A stretch of DNA of 54,176 bases from a virus (lineage: Duplodnaviria > Heunggongvirae > Uroviricota > Caudoviricetes). Every line of letters starts with the position of its first letter. The first letter of the stretch is position 1. A program made the translations under genes and the position numbers. Location: the IMG/VR virus record IMGVR_UViG_2563366830_000017, positions 1 through 54,176 of that record; one strand, written 5' to 3'. Below, one piece after another: positions 20,422 to 38,332 of the stretch. The notes below the pieces were generated by a model, which was not told where the DNA came from, searched no databases, and saw nothing but the letters and a program-made list of their open reading frames with translations.

Positions 20422-20590
20422 GAGGTTGCCCCGTATTCAGTGTCGCTGATTTGTATTGTCTGAAGTTGTTTTTACGTTAAGTTGATGCAGATCAATTAAT
20501 ACGATACCTGCGTCATAATTGATTATTTGACGTGGTTTGATGGCGTAGATGCACGTTGTGACATGTAGATGATAATTATTATCATTTTGC

Positions 20591-20800
20591 GGGTCCTTTC
20601 CGGCGATCCGACAGGTTACGGGGCGGCGACCTCGCGGGTTTTCGCTATTTATGAAAATTTTCCGGCTTAAGGCGTTTCCGTTCTTCTTCGCCGTAACTTC
20701 ATGTTTTTATTTAAAACACCCCCTAAAAAGAAAGGAAACGACAGGTGCTGAAAACGGGCTTTTTGGCCTCTGTCGTTTCCTTTCTCTGTTTTTGGCCGTG
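20591..20800 (+). other. cos: Prophage cos site (cosQ-cosN-cosB); cohesive-end sequence GGGCGGCGACCT at 20621..20632
   Basis: Sequence matches lambda cos as recalled; immediately upstream of Nu1. Confidence 0.9.
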
Positions 20801-26753: not shown

Positions 26754-27029
26754 ATGTCGATGTACACAACCGCCCAGCTGCTGGCGGCAAATGAGCAGAA
26801 ATTTAAGTTTGATCCGCTGTTTCTGCGTCTCTTTTTCCGTGAGAGCTATCCCTTCACTACGGAGAAAGTCTATCTCTCACAAATTCCTGGACTGGTAAAC
26901 ATGGCGCTGTACGTTTCGCCGATTGTTTCCGGTGAGGTTATCCGTTCCCGTGGCGGCTCCACCTCTGAATTTACGCCGGGATATGTCAAACCCAAGCACT
27001 TAGCATGGCTTTCTGAGGCTTTCGTGTAG
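26754..27029 (+). pseudogene. E: Major capsid protein E, 5-prime fragment (82 lambda-like codons then 10 foreign codons and stop) created by insertion
   Basis: MSMYTTAQLLAANEQKFKFDPLFLRLFFRESYPFTT...GYVKPKH matches lambda E; then LAWLSEAFV-stop. Confidence 0.9.
26989..26998. repeat. Left copy of 10-bp direct repeat AACCCAAGCA at island junction
   Basis: Identical 10-mer at 38323..38332; lambda-like E sequence ends here. Confidence 0.75.
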
Positions 27030-27110
27030 TTGCTGGTTTTTACACTTAATCTTTTGATAATAAAGAATAAGTTTATCTGGCGCTTTCACTGAATTTTCCT
27101 CGTTATCTGT

Positions 27111-27146
27111 GTGTTGCAATCATCTCTGTATTGCAGCTTGTATTGC
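27111..27146 (+). repeat. Candidate integrase arm-type sites: three copies of TGT(A/G)TTGC(A) near left end
   Basis: GTGTTGCA, TGTATTGCA, TGTATTGC read in sequence; two more TGTATTGCA copies at 38227..38247. Confidence 0.45.
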
Positions 27147-27161
27147 TTTTTGGGGCTAAAA

Positions 27162-28397
27162 ATGGCTGGCGAGAACAAACTGAGCGACAAAGCGCTTAAA
27201 GGATATCTGGGGAAACCCAGAGAAAAGCAGATCACCATTGCTGATGGAAAGGGGCTTTCTATTCGTGTGAGTACTAAAGGGGCTGTGAGCTTTGTTTTCT
27301 TCTACAGGTTAGCAGGTGGCCGGGCTGCTCCGGTCTGGCTAACGTTGGGTAAATATCCTGATATGTCACTCAAACAGGCAAGGGAAAAGCGCGACGAGTG
27401 CCGTGGTTGGTTGGCTGACAAACGTGATCCGCGTATCCAGATTAAGATTCAGGCTGAAGAACGCTTAAAGCCGGTCACAGTGGAGGATGCACTAAATTAC
27501 TGGTATGAAAACTACTGTAAGGTGCGTCGTAAAACTCATGCTGTAACGCTTGGCAGATTTCGAAAGCATATCTTTCCCTATATCGGTCATTTGCCCGTAA
27601 ATGACACTCACCTATATGAATGGCTGGACTGTTTTGACCGAATTAAACGTAATGCACCAGTTATGGCGGCGTATGTTTTTTCTGACACTAAATTAGCTCT
27701 TCGTTTTTGTCGGGTACGCCAGTACGCGACGTGTGATGCTTTAAAGGATTTGCGCATGAGTGATGTGGGGCAGATTGCAGGTAAGCGGGATCGGGTTCTG
27801 GATGAAGCCGAACTCGGCCAGCTCTGGAAGGCAATTTTTGTCGAGCCTGATTTAAAACTAATGTCTGAATACACGCGAAAAATGTTTGTGCTTTGTACAG
27901 TATTTGGATGTCGAATGAGTGAAGCCCGATTATCAGAATGGAGCGAATGGGATCTCGAAAGTTGGGTTTGGACTGTGCCAAAAGATCACTCAAAAACTGG
28001 TGTTGAAATCGTCAGACCAGTACCTGAAATTCTACGACAGTGGGTAACGGATGTTCACGAAGAGACAAAACATACTGGTTATGTGCTGGGAAGTCTGCGA
28101 ATTAGAGAAAGCGTAAGCAAGATTGGGGGGAAAATCGGTAAACGTTTGGGCCATGAAAAACAATGGTCACTACACGACCTTAGAAGAACGCTATCTACTC
28201 ATCTAAGTGATCTCGGTGTTGAATTTTATGTAGTAGAACAACTGTTAGGCCATGCGCTACCTGGCGTGGCAGGTGTTTACAACCGGAGTAAGTTTATGGC
28301 TAAAAAACTGGATGCTCTGGAACTCTGGACTACATATCTCAATAGCATCGCAGCTGCTGATTCAAAAGTGACAATCCTCAAACAAAAGGCTGGTTAG
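27162..28397 (+). CDS. Tyrosine integrase, P4-type (island-encoded)
   Basis: 411 aa from ATG; C-terminal HxLRxT...HxxxxxxxxY-like catalytic region (HELR...HDLRRT...LGHA...VY); adjacent to left junction. Confidence 0.85.
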   Translation: MAGENKLSDKALKGYLGKPREKQITIADGKGLSIRVSTKGAVSFVFFYRLAGGRAAPVWLTLGKYPDMSLKQAREKRDECRGWLADKRDPRIQIKIQAEERLKPVTVEDALNYWYENYCKVRRKTHAVTLGRFRKHIFPYIGHLPVNDTHLYEWLDCFDRIKRNAPVMAAYVFSDTKLALRFCRVRQYATCDALKDLRMSDVGQIAGKRDRVLDEAELGQLWKAIFVEPDLKLMSEYTRKMFVLCTVFGCRMSEARLSEWSEWDLESWVWTVPKDHSKTGVEIVRPVPEILRQWVTDVHEETKHTGYVLGSLRIRESVSKIGGKIGKRLGHEKQWSLHDLRRTLSTHLSDLGVEFYVVEQLLGHALPGVAGVYNRSKFMAKKLDALELWTTYLNSIAAADSKVTILKQKAG

Positions 28398-28398
28398 C

Positions 28399-28629
28399 AT
28401 GAAAAAAATGGCAATTGTTGATAAAAAGGGTCTGGAGTACATTCCTAACATTGACCGAATGATCCGTGAGAAAGAATGTCGGGAGCTAACTACTCTTGCG
28501 AACAGCACACGCTGGAAGCTGGAGAAGGAAGGAAAATTTCCTAAGCGGATCAAGATTGGTTCCACTGCTGTTGCATATCGTCTTTCAGAAGTGCAGGCAT
28601 GGATTCGAGGTGAGTGGGAAACAACTTAA
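28399..28629 (+). CDS. AlpA-family HTH regulator/excisionase-like protein
   Basis: 76 aa; placed immediately after integrase as in P4-like and PICI elements. Confidence 0.7.
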   Translation: MKKMAIVDKKGLEYIPNIDRMIREKECRELTTLANSTRWKLEKEGKFPKRIKIGSTAVAYRLSEVQAWIRGEWETT

Positions 28630-28636
28630 CTATTAG

Positions 28637-29467
28637 GTGGGCATTGTGGCTATATTTCATTATACAGATCTTTTTGGTTTGAAAGGTATATTAGACTCTA
28701 ATTCTTTATGGGCTACAAACATATATTTCTTAAATGATAAAGAGGAGTCTAACCATGGATGTGAATGCTTTCGAAATACAATTAAAATAGTTGATGACAA
28801 TATCATTCCAAAAGATAAGAAAACTATTTTGCTCAAGTCTCTTGACATGTATGAGAAAGGGAGGTTACAAAAAGAAAAAGGGATTGATAAACATGTTTAT
28901 AGCATCTCTTTTTGTAAGGAAAACGATAAGTTAAGTCAGTGGAGAGGTTACGGAAATAAACAGGGTGTTTGCATTGAGTTTGATGCGGATGAACTTGTGA
29001 GCTTTTCTCAAAATATTTATTTAAATTGTGTTGCACATGATGTTATATATTCAAATAATAACGATATTACTAAGATGAGTAAGGAGTTGGGAGAGTTTTT
29101 TTCTTGTAATGGTATTAACATTAAAGAAATGAATGATCATTTTGTAACAATGGTCTCTACGTATCAATTTATATCTAAATACATCCCATTTTTTAAACAT
29201 CCTAGTTTTATCGAAGAGAATGAATTTAGATTGGTATTTACTCCGTGGATGCAAATGCCAGATGTGCACTTCAGAATAAATAATAATGGAATCATCCCTT
29301 ATATCATCATTGATAATAAAGATAATAGAAAGTTACCAATTAAAAGCATTACAATTGGCCCGACAAACGATTATGATTTCATTGAGGCTGGTATAAAAAT
29401 GTTCTTGGATTCAAGAGGATTTAGTTCTGTGGAAATTAAATCCTCATCAATTCCATTCAGGGGGTAA
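28637..29467 (+). CDS. DUF2971-like protein (AT-rich cargo gene)
   Basis: N-terminal FHYTDLFGLKGILDSNSLWATNIYFLNDKEE resembles the DUF2971 signature as I recall it; GTG start; low GC. Confidence 0.55.
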   Translation: MGIVAIFHYTDLFGLKGILDSNSLWATNIYFLNDKEESNHGCECFRNTIKIVDDNIIPKDKKTILLKSLDMYEKGRLQKEKGIDKHVYSISFCKENDKLSQWRGYGNKQGVCIEFDADELVSFSQNIYLNCVAHDVIYSNNNDITKMSKELGEFFSCNGINIKEMNDHFVTMVSTYQFISKYIPFFKHPSFIEENEFRLVFTPWMQMPDVHFRINNNGIIPYIIIDNKDNRKLPIKSITIGPTNDYDFIEAGIKMFLDSRGFSSVEIKSSSIPFRG

Positions 29468-29598
29468 GGATTAACACTTTTAATCTGTGATATTATAAAA
29501 ATGGTGGATAAAGGCGACCAGAATTGGTCGCCAATGTGAGTATATAGTTAGCCTTAATCAGAATACGAGGTTATCGCCTGATAGGCAATGTGAACAGT

Positions 29599-29955
29599 TC
29601 AATATTTAGGTGGTTCAACAAGAGCGTTTATCATTGCTCTCAAATTATCGCGAACACTTATCCAAGTCTGTTCTGCTCGTTCTAACTCATCAGTGTACAA
29701 CTTTAATGTTTTATCTATGCCATATGTGGCTATTAAATTTATAGCTTCTTGTAATTTTTCAGGATTATTCCTTCTTGGGGGAGTGAATATACCACGGATT
29801 TTTCCGGTAATTAAAGCTTTACGGTGTCTACATAGAATACCTTTACTTCCTGCTGGACAATTACAAGTCATGATTAGCGAGCCAGAATCGTTTGATACAG
29901 TGACTATGTATACATCCAAACTACTGCTACTTGTTGCGAAGAATTCGTATTTCAT
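29599..29955 (-). CDS. SWIM-type zinc-finger protein (CxCx8CxH), AT-rich cargo gene
   Basis: Motif CNCPAGSKGILCRH seen in translation; convergent with DUF2971-like gene. Confidence 0.5.
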   Translation of the reverse strand: MKYEFFATSSSSLDVYIVTVSNDSGSLIMTCNCPAGSKGILCRHRKALITGKIRGIFTPPRRNNPEKLQEAINLIATYGIDKTLKLYTDELERAEQTWISVRDNLRAMINALVEPPKY

Positions 29956-29982
29956 GTGTTAGCTCCTTGACTTCAATTATTC

Positions 29983-30114
29983 TTATCCTTTTGGTTCAAT
30001 ACCGCGCCGTAGCAGCTCTTTGCGCCCTAATTCTTTAAGCCAGTTGGCTAGGCTTATGCCGTCGCTCTGCGCTTCTTTGTCGAATTGCTCTTTTAGCTCT
30101 GGAGAAATTCGCAT
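29983..30114 (-). CDS. Small basic protein, possible ribbon-helix-helix repressor (43 aa from ATG)
   Basis: MRISPELKEQFDKEAQSDGISLANWLKELGRKELLRRGIEPKG; divergent from downstream plus-strand operon. Confidence 0.4.
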   Translation of the reverse strand: MRISPELKEQFDKEAQSDGISLANWLKELGRKELLRRGIEPKG

Positions 30115-30313
30115 TCTGAATTGTGGAGATTGCCCATCACCCTTAGGACTTTTATCGCGTTTGATCGTTGACAAGTGACCACCTATTGAATTAGCCTTTT
30201 CATTGTTAGGTGGCCACCTTAACACGGGGGCACTTAAAAAAGCAAAGCCCGAAGGTGCTGGGAACACCAACGGGCTTCTAACCACCAACGATAGCAACAG
30301 TATCGAGGTAGCT

Positions 30314-30517
30314 ATGAGAAATCATACCACACACCCGCAAGGGCGGGACCCGCACAACCTGAATAAATACATCTGGCGTTTTATCGCCTTGAGTACGGCA
30401 CAACCGCGCATGATTACCATCGAGGCCATCAGCGAACAGGAAGCCCGCCAGCAATCCCCAACTGGCTGCGTGATGGTATTCGCCGCCCGTATTCGTCAGG
30501 AGGTGTGCCGTGCTTAA
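30314..30517 (+). CDS. Hypothetical small protein, first gene of island early operon
   Basis: ORF track 30203..30517; ATG at 30314 chosen. Confidence 0.4.
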   Translation: MRNHTTHPQGRDPHNLNKYIWRFIALSTAQPRMITIEAISEQEARQQSPTGCVMVFAARIRQEVCRA

Positions 30518-30695
30518 AACCTTCCGTGTATTTGCCCGAGCTGTTAACCCACTGGGCCACACAATTGGTATCACTCAGAACGTGAAGGCTGTTAATGTTC
30601 AGACGGCTATTGCTGCGGTGAGAAGCGAATCATCAGAATATGGCTTATCACAAGTCATTATTTCAGCAGTGTATGAATTAAAAGAGGTGCATTAA
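30510..30695 (+). CDS. Hypothetical small protein
   Basis: 61-aa ORF, overlapping starts/stops in operon. Confidence 0.45.
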   Translation: MLKTFRVFARAVNPLGHTIGITQNVKAVNVQTAIAAVRSESSEYGLSQVIISAVYELKEVH

Positions 30696-30886
30696 TGCAG
30701 GAAATCACATTACACGAAGCCGCTGAACGTGCGCACCAGACAGAAATTATTTGCCGCCTTCTTGAGGTATACCCGAACAAAATTACAGATGCTGATATAT
30801 CCGCGCTGGCGAGCCTACTGGCGCGCCTTTCGGGAAGTGTCGCTAGTTTCCTGATTGAGGAAGAAAGTAAGCTGGTGGGGGATTAA
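30695..30886 (+). CDS. Hypothetical small protein
   Basis: 63-aa ORF, translationally coupled in operon. Confidence 0.45.
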   Translation: MQEITLHEAAERAHQTEIICRLLEVYPNKITDADISALASLLARLSGSVASFLIEEESKLVGD

Positions 30887-31108
30887 ATGAATACAGAACG
30901 GGAAGTCTTTTTTAAATTGTTAGCATGTGCAGAAAGTCCATTAACTTTAAATAATTCAGCAAAAGCAATATTAAATATGTGGCTTGATTGCATAAATGAC
31001 AATGAAGATGCAAATATTGCTTATGGCCTGTTGTCACTTATTGATGAATCAGCAGAAAAACTCAATGACGCAATAAATAGTGCCCTGCTATCAAATAAGT
31101 CGAGTTAA
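30887..31108 (+). CDS. Hypothetical small protein
   Basis: 73-aa ORF in operon. Confidence 0.45.
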   Translation: MNTEREVFFKLLACAESPLTLNNSAKAILNMWLDCINDNEDANIAYGLLSLIDESAEKLNDAINSALLSNKSS

Positions 31109-31125
31109 GTCGAGGAATAAATAAT

Positions 31126-31425
31126 ATGGAAATGAAAAATTCTGGCTTTATTGCCAGCGGCCCCGCTCGGCCTGAATTTATGAACGGCGATATTTACCGC
31201 GATAAATACGGCGGCACGGTAACGATTAAAGGCGTGGCAGAACGGCGCATCACTTACCGCCGTGAGGGGTATAGCTATGACTGCGTGATGCCTGTTTATC
31301 AGTTCCGGCGTGATTTTTCCCTGGTATATGCCGCACCCCGCAGTAAGCCCATCAGCAGGGAAAAAGCGCGGGGAAACATCCAGAAAATGAAAAGCATGAT
31401 TAACGCATTCAGGGGCAAAAAATGA
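31126..31425 (+). CDS. Hypothetical protein (99 aa)
   Basis: ORF immediately upstream of and overlapping primase start. Confidence 0.5.
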   Translation: MEMKNSGFIASGPARPEFMNGDIYRDKYGGTVTIKGVAERRITYRREGYSYDCVMPVYQFRRDFSLVYAAPRSKPISREKARGNIQKMKSMINAFRGKK

Positions 31426-33173
31426 AACTGGCACCGAACTTAAAAAAACAGCCACGCGACAGACTGACAGAGGTAATCATCTTTGCAGGTAGTGATGCGT
31501 GGAGCCATGCGAAAGAGTGGCGGGAATGGGCGGGTAAACATATTGCCGCCGACGATGTGCCGCCTGTCGTGCTGGCTGATGAGCAACTGAAAAATATCAC
31601 CGATTACCGGATCATTGATGAAGATCGTCAGTGTGTGCGTGTTTACCGCGCAGGACATATCACAGAGCACAGCATGACGCAGATTGTTACGTTACTGGCT
31701 GTGGCTGGAGTGAAGACCGTACACGAATACGCGGGGATTACTGACACCAGCCCAGTGGATTTATCCGAGCAGTTGCCGCGACTCAAAGAGGAATGCGAGC
31801 GTGGGGAAAGTCTGGTGCTTAATCTTCCGACGAAGCAAAAGGCGCAACTTTCACAGATGGCAGACAGTGAACGTGCACAACTACTTGCCGATCGCTTTGA
31901 TGGTGTGTGTGTTCATGCAGAAAGTGAAATCGTCCACGTATGGCGCGGCGGGGTATGGTGTCCGGTCAGCACAATGGAGCTGAGCCGCGAAATGGTGGCG
32001 ATCTATTCAGAGCACAGGGCCACGTTCAGCAAACGTGTAATCAATAACGCCGTGGAAGCGTTAAAAGTTATTGCCGACCCCATGGGGGAGCCGTCCGGTG
32101 ATTTGCTACCGTTCACTAATGGTGTGCTTAACCTGAAAACGGGGGAATTTTCTCCGCACTCGCCGGAGCACTGGAGCACCACGCACAATGGCATTGAGTA
32201 CACGCCACCAGTAGCAGGGGAAAACATCCGCGATAATGCGCCAAATTTCCATAAATGGCTTGAACATGCCGCAAGAAAAGACCCGCGCAAGATGATGCGT
32301 ATATGTGCCGCGTTATACATGATTATGGCGAACCGCTACGACTGGCAGATGTTCATTGAGGCCACCGGAGACGGGGGAAGCGGTAAGAGTACATTTACCC
32401 ATATTGCCACCCTGCTTGCTGGCAAACAGAACACCGTAAGCGCGGAGATGACATCACTCGATGATGCAGGAGGGCGCGCGCAGGTTGTCGGGAGTCGTCT
32501 TATCGTCCTTGCCGATCAGCCGAAATATACGGGGGAAGGCACGGGCATCAAGAAAATCACGGGAGGCGATCCCGTTGAAATTAACCCGAAATATGAGAAG
32601 CGATTCACGACGATAATAAGGGCGGTGGTACTGGCAACCAATAACGACCCGATGATCTTTACCGAACGGGCCGGAGGTGTGTCACGCCGTCGGGTGATTT
32701 TCCGGTTCGACAACATTGTAAGGGAGGACGAAAAAGACAAGGAATTACCGGAAAAGATAGCGGCAGAAATCCCCGTAATTATCCGCCGCTTGCTGGCTAA
32801 TTTTGCTGACCCTGAAAAGGCACGGGCTTTATTACTGGAACAGCGTGACGGTGATGAAGCTCTGGCAATAAAGCAGCAAACGGATCCGGTTGTTGAGCTT
32901 TGCGCGGCGCTGGAGTTTCTGGAGGAAGCTCGTGGGCTAATGATGGGCGGTGGTGGTGACACCGTGAAGTACACGACCAGAAACAGCCTTTACCGTGTCT
33001 ATATGGCCTTCATGGCATACACAGGAAAGGGGAAATGTTTGAGCGTGAATGAGTTCGGAAAGGCTATGAGGTCAGCGGCGAAAGTTTACGGATATGAATA
33101 TATTACGCGAAAAGTTAAGGGAGTCACGCAGACCAACGCAACGACTACTGATGATTGCGATGCGTTTTTATAA
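31422..33173 (+). CDS. Primase/replication protein (P4-alpha C-terminal-like, with Walker A GDGGSGKST)
   Basis: 583 aa; P-loop GDGGSGKS seen; followed by iteron array. Confidence 0.8.
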   Translation: MKLAPNLKKQPRDRLTEVIIFAGSDAWSHAKEWREWAGKHIAADDVPPVVLADEQLKNITDYRIIDEDRQCVRVYRAGHITEHSMTQIVTLLAVAGVKTVHEYAGITDTSPVDLSEQLPRLKEECERGESLVLNLPTKQKAQLSQMADSERAQLLADRFDGVCVHAESEIVHVWRGGVWCPVSTMELSREMVAIYSEHRATFSKRVINNAVEALKVIADPMGEPSGDLLPFTNGVLNLKTGEFSPHSPEHWSTTHNGIEYTPPVAGENIRDNAPNFHKWLEHAARKDPRKMMRICAALYMIMANRYDWQMFIEATGDGGSGKSTFTHIATLLAGKQNTVSAEMTSLDDAGGRAQVVGSRLIVLADQPKYTGEGTGIKKITGGDPVEINPKYEKRFTTIIRAVVLATNNDPMIFTERAGGVSRRRVIFRFDNIVREDEKDKELPEKIAAEIPVIIRRLLANFADPEKARALLLEQRDGDEALAIKQQTDPVVELCAALEFLEEARGLMMGGGGDTVKYTTRNSLYRVYMAFMAYTGKGKCLSVNEFGKAMRSAAKVYGYEYITRKVKGVTQTNATTTDDCDAFL

Positions 33174-33179
33174 AAAATG

Positions 33180-33430
33180 GCAATGGTTATCTACCTTGTC
33201 TACCTGACTGAAAGAAAATACTTTTATTTCAATGTATTAATGCAGGTAGATAACTATTTTTCACTGTCTACCTGTTATCTACCTTATCTACCCATTTTTG
33301 TAGACAGGTAAGGAGACGGGTAGAGATGAGGTAGACAGCTATTTGGGGCTGTCTACCTCCCTGAAACCCGCGCCATTACTGGCCTGATAACTAATCAGGT
33401 AGACAAGGTAGACAAGGTGGTGGTGCACAA
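33180..33430. repeat. ori: Island replication-origin iterons (GGTAGACA / TGTCTACC family, both orientations)
   Basis: At least 10 copies of (A)GGTAGAC(A) or its complement within 250 bp directly after primase gene. Confidence 0.75.
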
Positions 33431-33462
33431 AAAACTTTTTAAACGAGGGGGTAAAAATAAAA

Positions 33463-33720
33463 ATGCACACATCAGGAAAACTGAACAAACATATAAAGCC
33501 ACATTACCGCGCCCTTGATATGGCTGAACACTGGCTAAGGGTGGCGATTAAGGCAATAGACCGCAACGCCGGGGAAGGATACGCGAAAGCACATCCCGAA
33601 CTGATAAGCGCATTCATGACAACGGCGGCTGCAAACTTTGCCACGCTGACCGAACGGGAGATTGCTGAAGCGGAGGAAGTGACAACAATCAATATTAAGT
33701 CCGGAGAGCAGGCAGCATGA
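33463..33720 (+). CDS. Hypothetical protein (85 aa)
   Basis: ORF overlapping ssb start. Confidence 0.45.
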   Translation: MHTSGKLNKHIKPHYRALDMAEHWLRVAIKAIDRNAGEGYAKAHPELISAFMTTAAANFATLTEREIAEAEEVTTINIKSGEQAA

Positions 33721-34166
33721 CGGCGCAAATATCAGTTTACGGGCGGTTGGTGGACGACCCGCAGACAAAACAGACCAGCAAGGGCACCCCCATGACGCTG
33801 GCGCGTATGGCGGTATCACTGCCCTGCAGTCAGTCGGATGACGGTCTGGCGACGTTGTGGTTATCTGTCCTGGCGTTTGGCAGACAAGCCGACGCGCTGG
33901 CAAAGCATCACAAAGGCGAACTCCTGAGCGTGGCGGGTAACATGCAGATGAGCCAGTGGACTGGACAGAACGGCGAAACGCGGCAGGGCTGGCAGGTTAT
34001 CGCAGACAGCGTAATCAGTGCGCGATCGGTGCGACCGGGCGGCAAAAAAGGCCAACAGGGGCAGGCTACTGACGCACTGAACAGAGCAAAACAACAGGCA
34101 GATCAGCAAGGAAGCCAGCCACCAGAGGGAGATAATGAGCAATGGGGAGATGATATCCCGTTTTAA
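33717..34166 (+). CDS. ssb: Single-stranded DNA-binding protein
   Basis: OB-fold-like N-region, Gln/Gly-rich linker and acidic C-terminal tail ending DDIPF. Confidence 0.85.
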   Translation: MTAQISVYGRLVDDPQTKQTSKGTPMTLARMAVSLPCSQSDDGLATLWLSVLAFGRQADALAKHHKGELLSVAGNMQMSQWTGQNGETRQGWQVIADSVISARSVRPGGKKGQQGQATDALNRAKQQADQQGSQPPEGDNEQWGDDIPF

Positions 34167-34382
34167 ATATTGCCAATAAAAAAAGCCGGAAAAAATAAAT
34201 TTTCCGGCATGCTACATAAATCCCGACCAAAGGGAGTGAAGATATTAACACTAATTGTCCGCACTGAAGTTGTCACCCCAAAACTTTATACAACATTGCA
34301 CTCGGTTGCATGTGTTCGCATGACAAATATCGGTGATAGCATATATCCACAATTATTTTTAATGAATGCAAAGAGGATGCGT

Positions 34383-35423
34383 ATGGTTGATTTATATTCG
34401 CCTACTCAGCTTGTACAGGTAGTTAATGCTGTAGATGTACAAAAACAACTAAATGCGTTATTTACCAGTTTGTTTTTTACTCGCTCGGTAATGTTTGAAT
34501 CGCGCGATATTATTCTTGATACAATCGACGATCCAAATATCCCAATTGCAGCGTTTTGTTCTCCTATGGTGGGTAGTAAAGTTTCACGTGACGAAGGGTA
34601 CGAATCAAAAACAATTCGTCCAGGCTATATGAAGCCGAAAAGCAGCATTGATCCAAATAAGTTAGCTGTGCGCCCTGCTGGTGTGTCACCTGAGCAATAC
34701 AATGCTTTTGGGGCGCGTAATATTAAAGTTAAACAGGCGATTGTAAATCAGGCTAAAGCTATTCGTGCACGTATTGAATGGCTTGCTGTTCAGGCAATCA
34801 CAACGGGGAAAAATATCATTGAGGGCGATGGTATTGAACGTTATGAGCTGGACTGGAATATAAAACCACAAAATATCATCACTCAGTCTGGCGGTACTGA
34901 GTGGTCAGGTAAGGATAAAGAAACTTTTGATCCAAATGATGATATTGAGAGCTACGCAGAATTTAGTGAGGGCGTCACTAATATCATCATTATGGGTGGT
35001 AATGTATGGAAGAAATACCGTTCATTCAGAGCGATAAAAGAGGCTTTGGATACCCGTCGTGGTTCTAATTCCGAACTGGAAACGGCCCTTAAAGACCTTG
35101 GTGATTCGGTGAGTTTTAAAGGGTATATGGGCGATGTTGCGATTGTTGTTTACAGCGGGCGTTATACCGACGAGGACGGAACAGAAAAACATTTCCTTGA
35201 TCCTGATTTGATGGTGCTTGGCAATACGGCTCTTCAGGGGATTGTCGCCTATGGCGGTATTCAGGATCCGGAGCTAATCCGAATGGGGCTGACTAAAGCC
35301 GAACTTGCACCGAAAAACTATATTGTGCCTGGTGATCCGGCTATTGAATATGTGCAGACACATTCAGCACCACAGCCAATACCGGCCCGCATCAATCGTT
35401 TTGTTACCGTTCGCATTGGCTAA
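34383..35423 (+). CDS. Island-encoded major capsid protein, diverged homolog of lambda E
   Basis: Blocks shared with prophage E: NIITQSGGTEWSGKDKETFDPNDDIESYA, LDTRRGSNSELETALKDLG, YMGDVAIVVYSGRY, MVLGNT; ORF track 34170 start is upstream. Confidence 0.85.
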   Translation: MVDLYSPTQLVQVVNAVDVQKQLNALFTSLFFTRSVMFESRDIILDTIDDPNIPIAAFCSPMVGSKVSRDEGYESKTIRPGYMKPKSSIDPNKLAVRPAGVSPEQYNAFGARNIKVKQAIVNQAKAIRARIEWLAVQAITTGKNIIEGDGIERYELDWNIKPQNIITQSGGTEWSGKDKETFDPNDDIESYAEFSEGVTNIIIMGGNVWKKYRSFRAIKEALDTRRGSNSELETALKDLGDSVSFKGYMGDVAIVVYSGRYTDEDGTEKHFLDPDLMVLGNTALQGIVAYGGIQDPELIRMGLTKAELAPKNYIVPGDPAIEYVQTHSAPQPIPARINRFVTVRIG

Positions 35424-35432
35424 GGGGGAGCA

Positions 35433-35774
35433 ATGGCTACTCATTACACTGAACTCATGGCTGGCACTGAAGCACTGGTGACTACGCTGGGGATATTTTC
35501 AGCTAATAAAGGGGTAATTCCTGCATTTACGCCACTGATGCAGGAAGATGCAACAGGTGCACTGGTGGTATGGGATGGTTCGAGCGTAGGTAAAGCGGTT
35601 TATGTTTCCGCTGTACAAATCGACACCGCGAAAAAAACACAGGCTCAGGTCTATAAGACAGGTGTCTTAAATGTTGATGCTCTGAACTGGCCTGAGTCTG
35701 TTAAAGAACTGTCAGTAAAGATTGCAGCGTTTGTTGGCTCAGGTATTTCTGTTCAGCCGCTGGCTCGTGTGTAA
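35433..35774 (+). CDS. Island-encoded decoration protein, diverged homolog of lambda D
   Basis: THYTEL, FTPLMQEDATGALVVWDGSSVGKAV, YKTGVLNVDALNWPE, AAFVGSGISV align with prophage D motifs. Confidence 0.8.
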   Translation: MATHYTELMAGTEALVTTLGIFSANKGVIPAFTPLMQEDATGALVVWDGSSVGKAVYVSAVQIDTAKKTQAQVYKTGVLNVDALNWPESVKELSVKIAAFVGSGISVQPLARV

Positions 35775-35785
35775 AGGGGGATACA

Positions 35786-36169
35786 ATGCAGAATGATTAC
35801 AATGACCTTAAGCCAATTGCCGAAATGATGTACCCGAATCCAGCTGTAGAGGAATTAAAAGCTATCGCTGACAAAATGTGTTTAAGCGAGCGCCTTGTTG
35901 ATATGAATCAGGTGATGGAAATTACAACCCTGAGTCGTCGTACACTGCTAAACCTTGAGGCTAGTGGAGAGTTCCCGGAGCGTGTGCAGGTTACGGAAGG
36001 GCGTAAGGCCTGGTATTTAAGTGAAGTGATCGACTGGATAAATAATATTCCTCGCGCTTCTGAATATTGCCGCGTACCTGTCCCAAAAAAGCCAGATGCG
36101 GCGCTATGCCTCAAGATTGAGCGTGTACGCCGCAATGCACGGGATGGTCGCTATAAGCTGATTGGTTGA
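35786..36169 (+). CDS. HTH protein (AlpA/MerR-like C-terminal half) immediately upstream of island cos
   Basis: 127 aa; segment MNQVMEITTLSRRTLLNLEASGEFPERVQVTEGRKAWYLSEVIDWI looks like AlpA-type HTH. Confidence 0.55.
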   Translation: MQNDYNDLKPIAEMMYPNPAVEELKAIADKMCLSERLVDMNQVMEITTLSRRTLLNLEASGEFPERVQVTEGRKAWYLSEVIDWINNIPRASEYCRVPVPKKPDAALCLKIERVRRNARDGRYKLIG

Positions 36170-36194
36170 TGAAATTAGGGCCCGCTCTGGCTGG

Positions 36195-36400
36195 CGGGTC
36201 CTTTCCGGTGATCCAGAACGTTACGGGGCGTCAGGCGCGCAGATTCTTGCTATTTATGACAATTTTCTGCGATTTGCCGTTTCCGTTCTTCTTCCTTGTA
36301 ACTTATTGTTTTTACTAGAAATACCCTCTAAAAAGAAAGGAAATGACAGGTGCTGAAAACAGGCTTTTGGGTCTCCGTCATTTCCTTTCTCATTTTTATC
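36195..36400 (+). other. cos: Island cos-like site, same orientation as prophage cos
   Basis: GGGTCCTTTCCGGTGATCC...ACGTTACGGGGCG...CGCG...GCTATTTATGA...AAAAAGAAAGGAAATGACAGGTGCTGAAAAC aligns block-by-block with 20591..20800. Confidence 0.8.
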
Positions 36401-36652
36401 TAAAAGTAAGCATCGAGGCCACCCCAAATGCTTATAGAGGTTATTGTGTCACTATGCGTACTGTTCAGGATTTAAAGTAGCAAGACATCTAGTTGCTTGC
36501 AGTTTTGGCGAATGATGTGAGGTTCTCTATAACAGATAATGTAACAAGTTACTGATATATTCTGTTATGGTTGACTTTAAATTTTGTTGCTCCTTCAATG
36601 AATTATTGAGGGGTAAAAATTAGGCGTGATAAGAATCGATCACGCCTATTGT

Positions 36653-37969
36653 TTATCTTGAAGAAATTTTAGGCAGGCTTTTTAAAAATAAATCTTTATT
36701 TCTACTTGCATCAGTTAAAAGTGTTAGGAATATTTTATCTGTAGGAGTGCATGTGCTCTTGTTTAACAGTAATTCACCAAGTTTCTGTAATCGAGAGAAT
36801 TGCCCATCCTCTTGGATTCTGTGACGAAGTGTACTATCATTTTTAATAACATCAACAAATGCAGAAACCATATTAATATCAAAGTGTTCAAACATTTCCA
36901 ATATTAAAGGTGCAGCCCCATTTGAATAAAAATTCTTCCTTCCATACTGATAGCTGAAACCACGATGGCCAACATAAGTTTTTGTAATGGCTGAAACAAA
37001 TTCAACAATATTATCTTCAGGGACGAAACTCGAGAATGGTAATAATTGGGTTACGATTTTTTCCTCTTCTGACCAATTATCTAAAGACTCGGTGAGTTTA
37101 TTAATGAGAGGCTCAATAATAACTTTTCGGGATGCAGGGCTAATATACATCAGTCCATCTACCAATAGTATGAATTGTTGTGCCTTCTCTATCTTATTGT
37201 TGTTTCCTGAAACTAAATACTTGTCAAATTGTTGGCCGACTTTACGTCGGTCGTCTTTTGAAAGTAATGTCCATAAAATAGGTGCGCAAAATTCAATGTT
37301 GTTTCTGAGTTCACTTGATATATTGGATGAGCAGTATGTGCCAAAAAAACGAGAGGATAATTCACTGATATAAATTGCAGGTAGATCTGAAAAGGCTTGC
37401 TTAACTGCCAGACTATTTTTATTAAATGTTGCCGAATCCATTTCTGAAAGATATGTAGTTATATCTATGATGGCTGGTGGAAACTCTTTAGAAAGAACGT
37501 ATTTATTACAATCATTAATCAGGTTCACTACTTTGATTAAATCAGGGTCGCTACTTTGTGGATGTCCACCAAATAGATTCCTGGTTTCTCTAGCTTGTTG
37601 TAATAGTTTCTGACCTTCTCGATCGATAACTCCTATTTTAAATGCTCCATCTATTAAATCAAAGTCGCTCACATAATCCTGAAAATCTTCATACGTTTTA
37701 ATTTCTTTTTTTTGTTTACACTCTTTGTTGAATAGATCTAGGCTACGATGAATTATCTTTTGACGTAAATCATCAACTACAGCATTCCAGTAAGCAGTGA
37801 TGGCACTTCTATAACCTTTTACAGGAAGAACTCTTATTGCTTCTGAAATATATGGGCAGTCAACTACATCATGCCTCACAGTTGAGAGCGCAGTTTGTAA
37901 CAATGTAACTTCTGTAGAGTCTAGTGGAGTTGGCTGCACTAAATGAGAACTTATCTCTGTACCCTTCAT
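36653..37969 (-). CDS. Hypothetical 438-aa protein, AT-rich cargo gene between island cos and right junction
   Basis: Low GC; contains R-x5-H motif (RNLFGGH); no family confidently assigned. Confidence 0.6.
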   Translation of the reverse strand: MKGTEISSHLVQPTPLDSTEVTLLQTALSTVRHDVVDCPYISEAIRVLPVKGYRSAITAYWNAVVDDLRQKIIHRSLDLFNKECKQKKEIKTYEDFQDYVSDFDLIDGAFKIGVIDREGQKLLQQARETRNLFGGHPQSSDPDLIKVVNLINDCNKYVLSKEFPPAIIDITTYLSEMDSATFNKNSLAVKQAFSDLPAIYISELSSRFFGTYCSSNISSELRNNIEFCAPILWTLLSKDDRRKVGQQFDKYLVSGNNNKIEKAQQFILLVDGLMYISPASRKVIIEPLINKLTESLDNWSEEEKIVTQLLPFSSFVPEDNIVEFVSAITKTYVGHRGFSYQYGRKNFYSNGAAPLILEMFEHFDINMVSAFVDVIKNDSTLRHRIQEDGQFSRLQKLGELLLNKSTCTPTDKIFLTLLTDASRNKDLFLKSLPKISSR

Positions 37970-38322
37970 TTCAGGATTTTCCTATTCTTTTCCATTTTTC
38001 TACTCTATTGAATTTGAAAAAGATATCAAGTTCGTTCTTGCCAGTTTTAAGTGGAAAATTTGATGTTACCTTATTGAGATAAGGCAGTTCTCTATAACCT
38101 ATTGTTATTAATTATTTTTATTTTTTTCCAATTCAGATGTTTAGGGCTAAGAAGTTAAGTGAGAGTTCACAGCAAAACTGCTTCTAGTTCCTCACCGAGG
38201 AGCAAAAGGTTAAGACAGCGTACTTTGTATTGCACAATGTATTGCAGAACCTTCTTTCGAAAGCTACAACAATCAATTTTATATTGAAAATTCAATCATA
38301 TCCTTTCGATATTGACTCATAT

Positions 38323-38332
38323 AACCCAAGCA
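38323..38332. repeat. Right copy of 10-bp direct repeat AACCCAAGCA at island junction
   Basis: Identical to 26989..26998; lambda-like E sequence resumes here. Confidence 0.75.

Follow-up and report, generated by a model that had tools for sequence, protein, structure and literature searches.

The subject of this analysis is an open reading frame (ORF) of 438 amino acids in IMG/VR virus record IMGVR_UViG_2563366830_000017, the whole 54,176 nucleotides of which we refer to as the window. The window is an Escherichia coli lambdoid prophage whose major capsid gene E is interrupted, at codons KPKH, by an insertion of ~11.3 kb; this insertion is a satellite of the phage-inducible chromosomal island (PICI) type, and the ORF is its last gene. 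We propose, with a probability of about 60%, that the ORF encodes a HEPN ribonuclease that acts as a single, stand-alone protein, and that it is exchangeable defence cargo in the immune hotspot at the 3' end of a helper-embedded PICI; a new one-gene anti-phage suicide or defence nuclease is the most likely identity of the protein. This proposal draws together purifying selection on an intact gene that looks separately transcribed, a predicted HEPN fold with an invariant motif, a solenoid, a slot that houses defence genes, and homologues that are solitary, patchily distributed and horizontally spread, some of them in defence islands.

A conserved ORF with a predicted HEPN domain and solenoid

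Chance cannot account for this reading frame, since it has 857 homologues at E <= 1e-3, a ratio of nonsynonymous to synonymous substitution rates (dN/dS) of 0.08 against a Klebsiella plasmid copy (91% nucleotide identity), and a full-length match to PHROG 27609 (E 2.3e-189, residues 1-438 against profile positions 1-418 of 418). The gene is real and under strong purifying selection. The exact protein occurs on 422 contigs and is a 'hypothetical protein' in every source, including RefSeq, whose entry for this gene, from an identical locus, is WP_016247987.1. Membership of PF27235 (AF_1680) is probable by proxy, because 119 of the 120 listed homologues, the 93%-identical P0001 among them, carry that precomputed annotation; as neither PF27235 nor PHROG 27609 has an assigned function, these assignments give a name and no mechanism. 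Literature searches on PF27235, AF_1680 and PDC-S50 returned nothing relevant. The ORF and the parts of the protein discussed below, where pLDDT stands for the predicted local distance difference test, are as follows.

36653-37969, minus strand: the 438-amino-acid ORF (WP_016247987.1), from ATG to stop, with the stop codon at 36653-36655
37490-37855, minus strand: predicted HEPN domain, residues ~39-160
37559-37582, minus strand: putative catalytic motif R130-N131-L-F-G-G-H136-P137 (R-N-x4-H, that is, Rx5H), translation checked
36656-37477, minus strand: predicted C-terminal, all-alpha ARM/HEAT-like solenoid, residues ~165-438
36908-36970, minus strand: conserved loop G334-P354, GHRGFSYQYGRKNFYSNGAAP, rich in Gly, aromatic residues and Arg, pLDDT 57-71, translation checked

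An AlphaFold2 model built with 43 homologues is all alpha-helical, with a mean pLDDT of 85.8 and a predicted TM-score (pTM) of 0.68, and its N-terminal domain is predicted to be a four-helix up-down bundle of the HEPN fold. Catalytic HEPN domains share the consensus Rx4-6H with a polar residue (N, H or D) after the Arg, and the motif of the 438-residue protein fits this consensus, with N131 as the polar residue. Two alignments were used to gauge conservation: A1, which holds the 43 homologues, and A2, which holds 45 full-length relatives at ~20% identity found by exhaustive profile search. A1 shows no variation at R130, G135, H136 and P137 and at least 90% conservation of N131; in A2 the motif reads R-N-x4-5-H-P, with the Arg present in 39 of 45 sequences, the Asn in 37 and the His in 40. 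R-N-x4-H is the most conserved feature across the superfamily in both alignments. An earlier reading of the DNA, made from its sequence alone (the sequence-only reading), had singled out an R-x5-H motif, ETRNLFGGHP, and guessed at a HEPN-type fold: the motif is present as R130-x5-H136, encoded at 37559-37582, and the guess at the fold gains support, as a prediction, from the HEPN-fold model together with the prominence of R-N-x4-H in the superfamily.

The protein also holds a second R-x4-H (R69..H74), the His of which is not conserved in the distant relatives of A2. A subclade of A2 (P0167, P0170, P0197 and P0198) has no R-N...H motif, reading for example LISGYL-ASARF, and its members may, from their sequences, be catalytically dead paralogues.

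The C-terminal two-thirds of the model are matched in a fold search by the ARM/HEAT proteins beta-catenin, condensin Cnd3 and CAP-G2, and exportins, and a whole-chain Foldseek search picks up the solenoid only. We presume that the solenoid is a sensor or oligomerisation domain. Within it lies the loop G334-P354, in which G334, G337, S339, R344 and F347 are invariant in A1 and Y348, S349, A352 and A353 nearly so; we infer from this pattern that the loop could be a contact for a ligand or nucleic acid.

An exchangeable slot between cos and attR

The sequence-only reading had described variable cargo at the end of the island, of a kind that is often defensive, and had proposed comparing the gene that occupies this position in related islands. 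Carried out on the 60 best-matching E. coli genomes listed, in which both flanks are at least 96% identical, this comparison bears the description out: the gene is not constant, the slot has six contents among these genomes, and several of them are recognised defence genes.

438-amino-acid gene: 12 of 60 listed genomes
DUF2971 plus TerS (a pseudogene in the copy inspected): 23 of 60
311-amino-acid hypothetical protein (as in the copy inspected): 13 of 60
DUF262 plus HEPN: 8 of 60
TIR protein: 3 of 60
Restriction endonuclease: 1 of 60

The DUF262 plus HEPN pair consists of GmrSD_N and HEPN_RiboL-PSP proteins and matches the PADLOC models NsnA (2e-59), PD-T4-2 A (7e-39) and PD-T4-2 B (1e-4); for the TIR protein the matches are Aga-type TIR models (Aga_TIR), and for the DUF2971 protein the match is PDC-S31. 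An hhalign comparison of the 438-residue family with a single RiboL-PSP HEPN protein of a sibling island was not significant. The proteins flanking the slot, a helix-turn-helix (HTH) protein and a protein that binds single-stranded DNA (SSB), are the same across the slot variants (WP_001178671.1 and WP_001710062.1). The 5' and 3' ends of PICIs are reported immune hotspots, as cited in PMC11364771, and the 438-residue gene lies in the accessory region from cos to attR, which is the 3'-end location.

Among the other contents, the 311-residue hypothetical protein WP_053902557.1 (for example L061 3126-4061, from E. coli PRO_A-1482-6W-A_ESBL) has no PADLOC match. A seventh content, in E. coli 1218KP (L014 14392-15896), comprises an 80-residue 'tail assembly protein', a 228-residue hypothetical protein and a DUF3892 protein, likewise with no PADLOC match; a kinship with tail-assembly-interference systems of the Tai type is conceivable.

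The slot and its borders, together with the rest of the island's mapped features, are these.

26989-38332: satellite island, PICI-type, inside prophage gene E
26989-26998: attL core, AACCCAAGCA, within the prophage major capsid gene
34170-35423: satellite gpE-like capsid gene
35433-35774: satellite gpD-like decoration gene
36194-36397, plus strand: satellite cos-like region, left border of the cassette; it and the prophage cos (20589-20792) are 80% identical without gaps
36398-38302: variable cargo cassette of 1.9 kb; homology to sibling islands ends at ~36397 and resumes at ~38303 (blastn against L010, L013 and L014)
36621-36648, minus strand: intrinsic-terminator-like hairpin (inverted repeat I1), a 10-bp stem followed by ATTTTT, beginning 5 nt past the stop codon
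38002-38029, minus strand: sigma-70 promoter-like site (TTGATA-16-TAGAGT), ~33 nt upstream of the ATG, by consensus match only
38323-38332, plus strand: attR core, AACCCAAGCA, the 10-bp core common to both junctions

Because homology to the sibling islands breaks at ~36397 and ~38303, the cassette consists of the 438-residue gene and its signals only. As for those signals, promoter-like sites in the region are no more numerous than expected from shuffled sequence. Also as the sequence-only reading had it, this is a low-GC gene at the distal end of the island, on the opposite strand: GC content is 34.8% (25.7% at third codon positions, GC3), where the remainder of the island has 45% and the prophage 57%, and the gene runs on the minus strand, opposite to the island operon, between the cos-like region and attR. 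An Rfam search around the gene gave no RNA match, and a search for tandem repeats that could serve as an antitoxin RNA found none. An exact 12-nt direct repeat, GTTCTCTATAAC, occurs at 36522-36533 and 38087-38098, ~120 nt outside each end of the ORF. It was considered as the border of the cassette and rejected, because both copies are internal to the cassette and the left one does not fall in the segment that a Klebsiella plasmid shares; it is probably a product of chance, with 0.2-0.3 such repeats expected in 2.3 kb of AT-rich DNA by a rough estimate.

The element around the gene is already published. A PICI embedded in its helper (HE-PICI) and named 11capE sits in prophage gene E in the account of Tommasini, Mageeney & Williams (2023, PMC10111431), and its integration site, 10-bp att core and gene order are all like those of the present island; the att core is the very 10-bp identity block given there for 11capE. 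The sections consulted contain no analysis of cargo or defence genes and no mention of the 438-residue gene. In the window, the prophage has its cosN, GGGCGGCGACCT, at 20621-20632, followed by terminase, portal, S49 protease, gpD and tail genes. The island itself encodes an integrase, an HTH protein, DUF2971, SWIM, Icd-like and DUF4222 proteins, a primase, an SSB, the gpE-like capsid and gpD-like decoration proteins and an AlpA-like HTH protein. Its cosN 12-mer has diverged, reading GGGCGTCAGGCG at 36226-36237 versus GGGCGGCGACCT in the helper, and its SSB ends in a host-type DDIPF tail.

A second variable slot adjoins the satellite integrase (28637-29955), and its contents here are a gene for a DUF2971 protein, which matches PDC-S31 weakly, and one for a SWIM zinc finger. 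The GC minimum of the window, 33% at 29-30 kb, falls in this integrase-side slot, and in a sibling island (strain TUM9757; L010 5373-6179) the same slot carries a TIR protein that matches the PADLOC candidate PDC-S35 (6e-67).

Relatives on plasmids and chromosomes

Of 5,426 complete E. coli genomes, 12 carry DNA identical to the gene, each time within this island and prophage, and related proteins occur far more widely. Listed homologues at 50-60% identity come from Campylobacterota, Xanthomonas, Stenotrophomonas, Cronobacter and metagenomes. A scan of 185,579 species, with one genome per species, found 40 loci, in Enterobacterales, Xanthomonadales, Methylococcales, Campylobacterota, Fusobacteriales, many Bacteroidota, Planctomycetota, Aminicenantes, Chlorobiales and one Firmicute. 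This sparse, phylum-hopping spread is the pattern of accessory genes that move horizontally. Prevotella sp. oral taxon 376 has three family copies on three scaffolds (L045, L056 and L059), with similar right-hand neighbours in two.

A copy on the Klebsiella variicola plasmid pBM374-1 (L015) encodes a 93%-identical protein, and the DNA shared with it, 36616-38330, spans promoter region, ORF and terminator over 1.7 kb at 88% identity. This copy is part of a plasmid defence island, where its neighbours are ppl, annotated as an anti-phage gene, and genes for a P-loop NTPase, a DUF4041 protein, Fic and a DNA methylase. The shared block stops within the satellite's attR core region. A Cronobacter copy (80% identical) lies at the fis-proximal, att-proximal end of an element resembling a capsid-forming PICI, convergent with the late operon as here, and a Phytobacter copy (84% identical) is likewise beside fis. 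Further afield, a Campylobacterota copy adjoins a TIR/beta-propeller protein and toxin-antitoxin modules, Xanthomonas copies sit among insertion sequence (IS) elements and SymE, and other copies adjoin IS elements with HigBA-like or ParDE modules. Across nine contexts there was no conserved partner gene; the gene is always solitary. A census of two neighbours on each side of 32 loci, 124 ORFs in all, found integrases, IS110, type I, IIG and ISP restriction-modification systems, IetS-like peptidases and AbiLi, mixed with housekeeping genes, and we regard the defence association of these neighbours as moderately supportive.

A sister family of 476 amino acids is found on conjugative plasmids of Escherichia, Klebsiella and Shigella (for example WP_103216244.1). 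Its homology to the 438-residue family extends over both domains (hhalign 98.5%, E 3e-15, 374 columns) at ~21% identity, with an N-terminal extension of ~30 residues and a conserved MRNxxxxSHPN motif, the spacing of which is Rx6H as opposed to Rx5H in the 438-residue protein; it has no Pfam annotation and is equally uncharacterised. One member of A2 matches the PADLOC candidate system PDC-S50 (E 1.6e-31), so part of the superfamily has already been flagged computationally as defence-associated.

Mechanism, alternatives and known systems

How might such a protein work? We suggest that two HEPN domains would dimerise to form a composite, metal-independent RNase site, which the C-terminal solenoid would hold off until an infection cue is sensed; the activated enzyme would then cut host tRNA or mRNA, aborting infection by competing phages, and this abortion of competitors would shield the lysogen, and hence the satellite and its lambdoid helper. 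DARNA offers the best template for the mechanism: it is a tRNA anticodon nuclease that turns on when phage SSB presents single-stranded DNA (ssDNA). Lambda relies on host SSB, and since the satellite's SSB has a host-type tail, a sensor of the SSB/ssDNA type would, speculatively, spare the helper. A broader proposal, which is quite possible but which we advance more tentatively, is that the protein would be the founding and experimentally tractable member of a new superfamily, made up of immune RNases that work as single proteins and comprising the PF27235 438-residue, 476-residue plasmid and PDC-S50-like types, in which the HEAT-like solenoid licenses the HEPN nuclease on a cue other than that of DARNA; as the satellite is embedded in its own helper, the protein would then have to tell competitor phages from the lambdoid helper.

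Several observations weigh against a HEPN defence nuclease. The assignment of the HEPN fold comes from a predicted structure and not a solved one; similarity to PD-T7-3, the former name of DARNA, is marginal and does not go beyond the HEPN region, and the PD-T7-3 model is matched by none of the 45 A2 relatives. No significant PADLOC model was found for the protein, NCBIfam, PDB sequence and local Pfam searches (the last with a copy that does not hold the PF27235 model) gave nothing meaningful, and every database name across the family is 'hypothetical protein'. Outside Enterobacterales, moreover, only a minority of the 124 neighbouring ORFs match restriction-modification, IetS-like, AbiLi, integrase or IS genes, and many are housekeeping genes.

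Could the gene instead serve the element that carries it? A selfish toxin or addiction module, or a weapon between elements, would stabilise its carrier and not act against phages. This explanation is unlikely, weakened because no antitoxin was found: there is no conserved partner or antitoxin gene in any context, and no tandem-repeat or Rfam RNA to take that role, and the large, conserved C-terminal domain suits a sensor-regulated enzyme more than a free toxin. PICIs do encode helper-interference functions, and a PICI-specific factor of the satellite life cycle, engaged in helper interference, packaging redirection or regulation, would be well placed directly beyond cos at the late end of the island, a 'late zone' being described in PMC10111431. 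We nonetheless judge such a factor very improbable, given that the gene is found in only 12 of the 60 best-matching listed genomes that have the satellite and both flanks, and that close homologues occupy a plasmid and non-satellite chromosomal sites in many phyla. The same homologues outside satellites mean that this is not an island-mobility gene, in keeping with the expectation of the sequence-only reading. That reading had also seen no phage-structural signature, and none emerged: the PHROG has no assigned function, a tblastn search of the 'phages' GenBank collection with the protein gave no match, and neither did a BFVD fold search with its model. There is equally little to commend a protein with a HEPN fold but no catalysis, which would serve as a scaffold or as a regulator that binds nucleotides or RNA, when R-N-x4-H is the most conserved feature of the family, the Arg, G135, His and Pro are invariant in the subfamily, and the motif fits the catalytic HEPN consensus down to the polar residue after the Arg.

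Another alternative is that the protein is a true DARNA (PD-T7-3) orthologue or member, and so a dodecameric tRNA anticodon nuclease triggered by ssDNA that phage SSB presents. PD-T7-3 is the sole PADLOC match of the 438-residue protein (E 0.023, query 40-132 against profile positions 21-117 of 432), and the match is colinear, ends at the catalytic Arg and covers the HEPN region only; it is also the PADLOC model matched by the largest number of A1 homologues, 4 of 43 (best E 4.3e-4). Against this, the protein has no significant whole-protein match to the PD-T7-3 profile, and a PADLOC scan of ten distant relatives, one of which was the homologue on an E. coli plasmid, found no link to PD-T7-3. 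We therefore consider orthology doubtful. DARNA is the closest characterised analogue; with sequence similarity marginal, we do not claim family membership.

The favoured reading, a stand-alone HEPN ribonuclease carried as defence cargo, would add one more HEPN defence candidate and not a new principle, but the candidate is well delimited, testable and found in an interesting ecological setting. Survival of the satellite depends on the lambdoid prophage that it interrupts, which makes the gene a natural test case of how a satellite-borne abortive-infection system can spare its helper and still exclude competitors. The HEPN-plus-solenoid family is not recognised by current defence-finding databases; if active, it would be a new family of single-gene HEPN defence, represented in satellites of E. 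coli, on enterobacterial plasmids and as far afield as Bacteroidota and Campylobacterota. The slot between cos and attR of PICIs embedded in capE is, in addition, a compact and well-delimited hotspot to mine for further systems, the 311-residue hypothetical protein being an example.

Among known systems, the protein resembles the RNases of the HEPN superfamily (HepT, the C-terminal HEPN of AbiA, Csm6/Csx1, PD-T4-2, ApeA and the PrrC/RloC type) in its predicted four-helix fold and its R-[N]-x4-6-H motif, and it resembles HEPN abortive-infection and toxin RNases in its occurrence on mobile elements and in defence hotspots. What sets it apart from these RNases is the lack of an MNT antitoxin, CARF, ATPase or reverse-transcriptase partner domain, in place of which it carries a fused ARM/HEAT-like solenoid. 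The nearest comparison is with DARNA, as PD-T7-3 (Vassallo et al. 2022, PMC9519451) has been renamed (Puteikiene et al. 2026, bioRxiv 10.64898/2026.02.22.705581; accession RCP48690.1). Our searches of the PDB turned up no DARNA-like entry, and the comparison is with its published description: DARNA consists of a HEPN domain at the N terminus (residues 1-159, with R117x4H122) and a Pds5-like helical domain at the C terminus (160-456), forms a dodecamer, is switched on by ssDNA from phage SSBs, binding 'CT' in ssDNA through F368, D372, Q403 and W406, and cuts tRNA anticodon loops (bioRxiv 10.64898/2026.02.22.705581). Like DARNA, the 438-residue protein is predicted to join an N-terminal HEPN domain to a HEAT/Pds5-like helical C-terminal domain in one chain of ~450 residues; unlike DARNA, with its Rx4H, it has the spacing Rx5H. 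If active, it would be a second, independent case of the DARNA-type pairing of a HEPN domain with a helical-repeat sensor, and the coupling of sensor to nuclease could be compared across the two systems.

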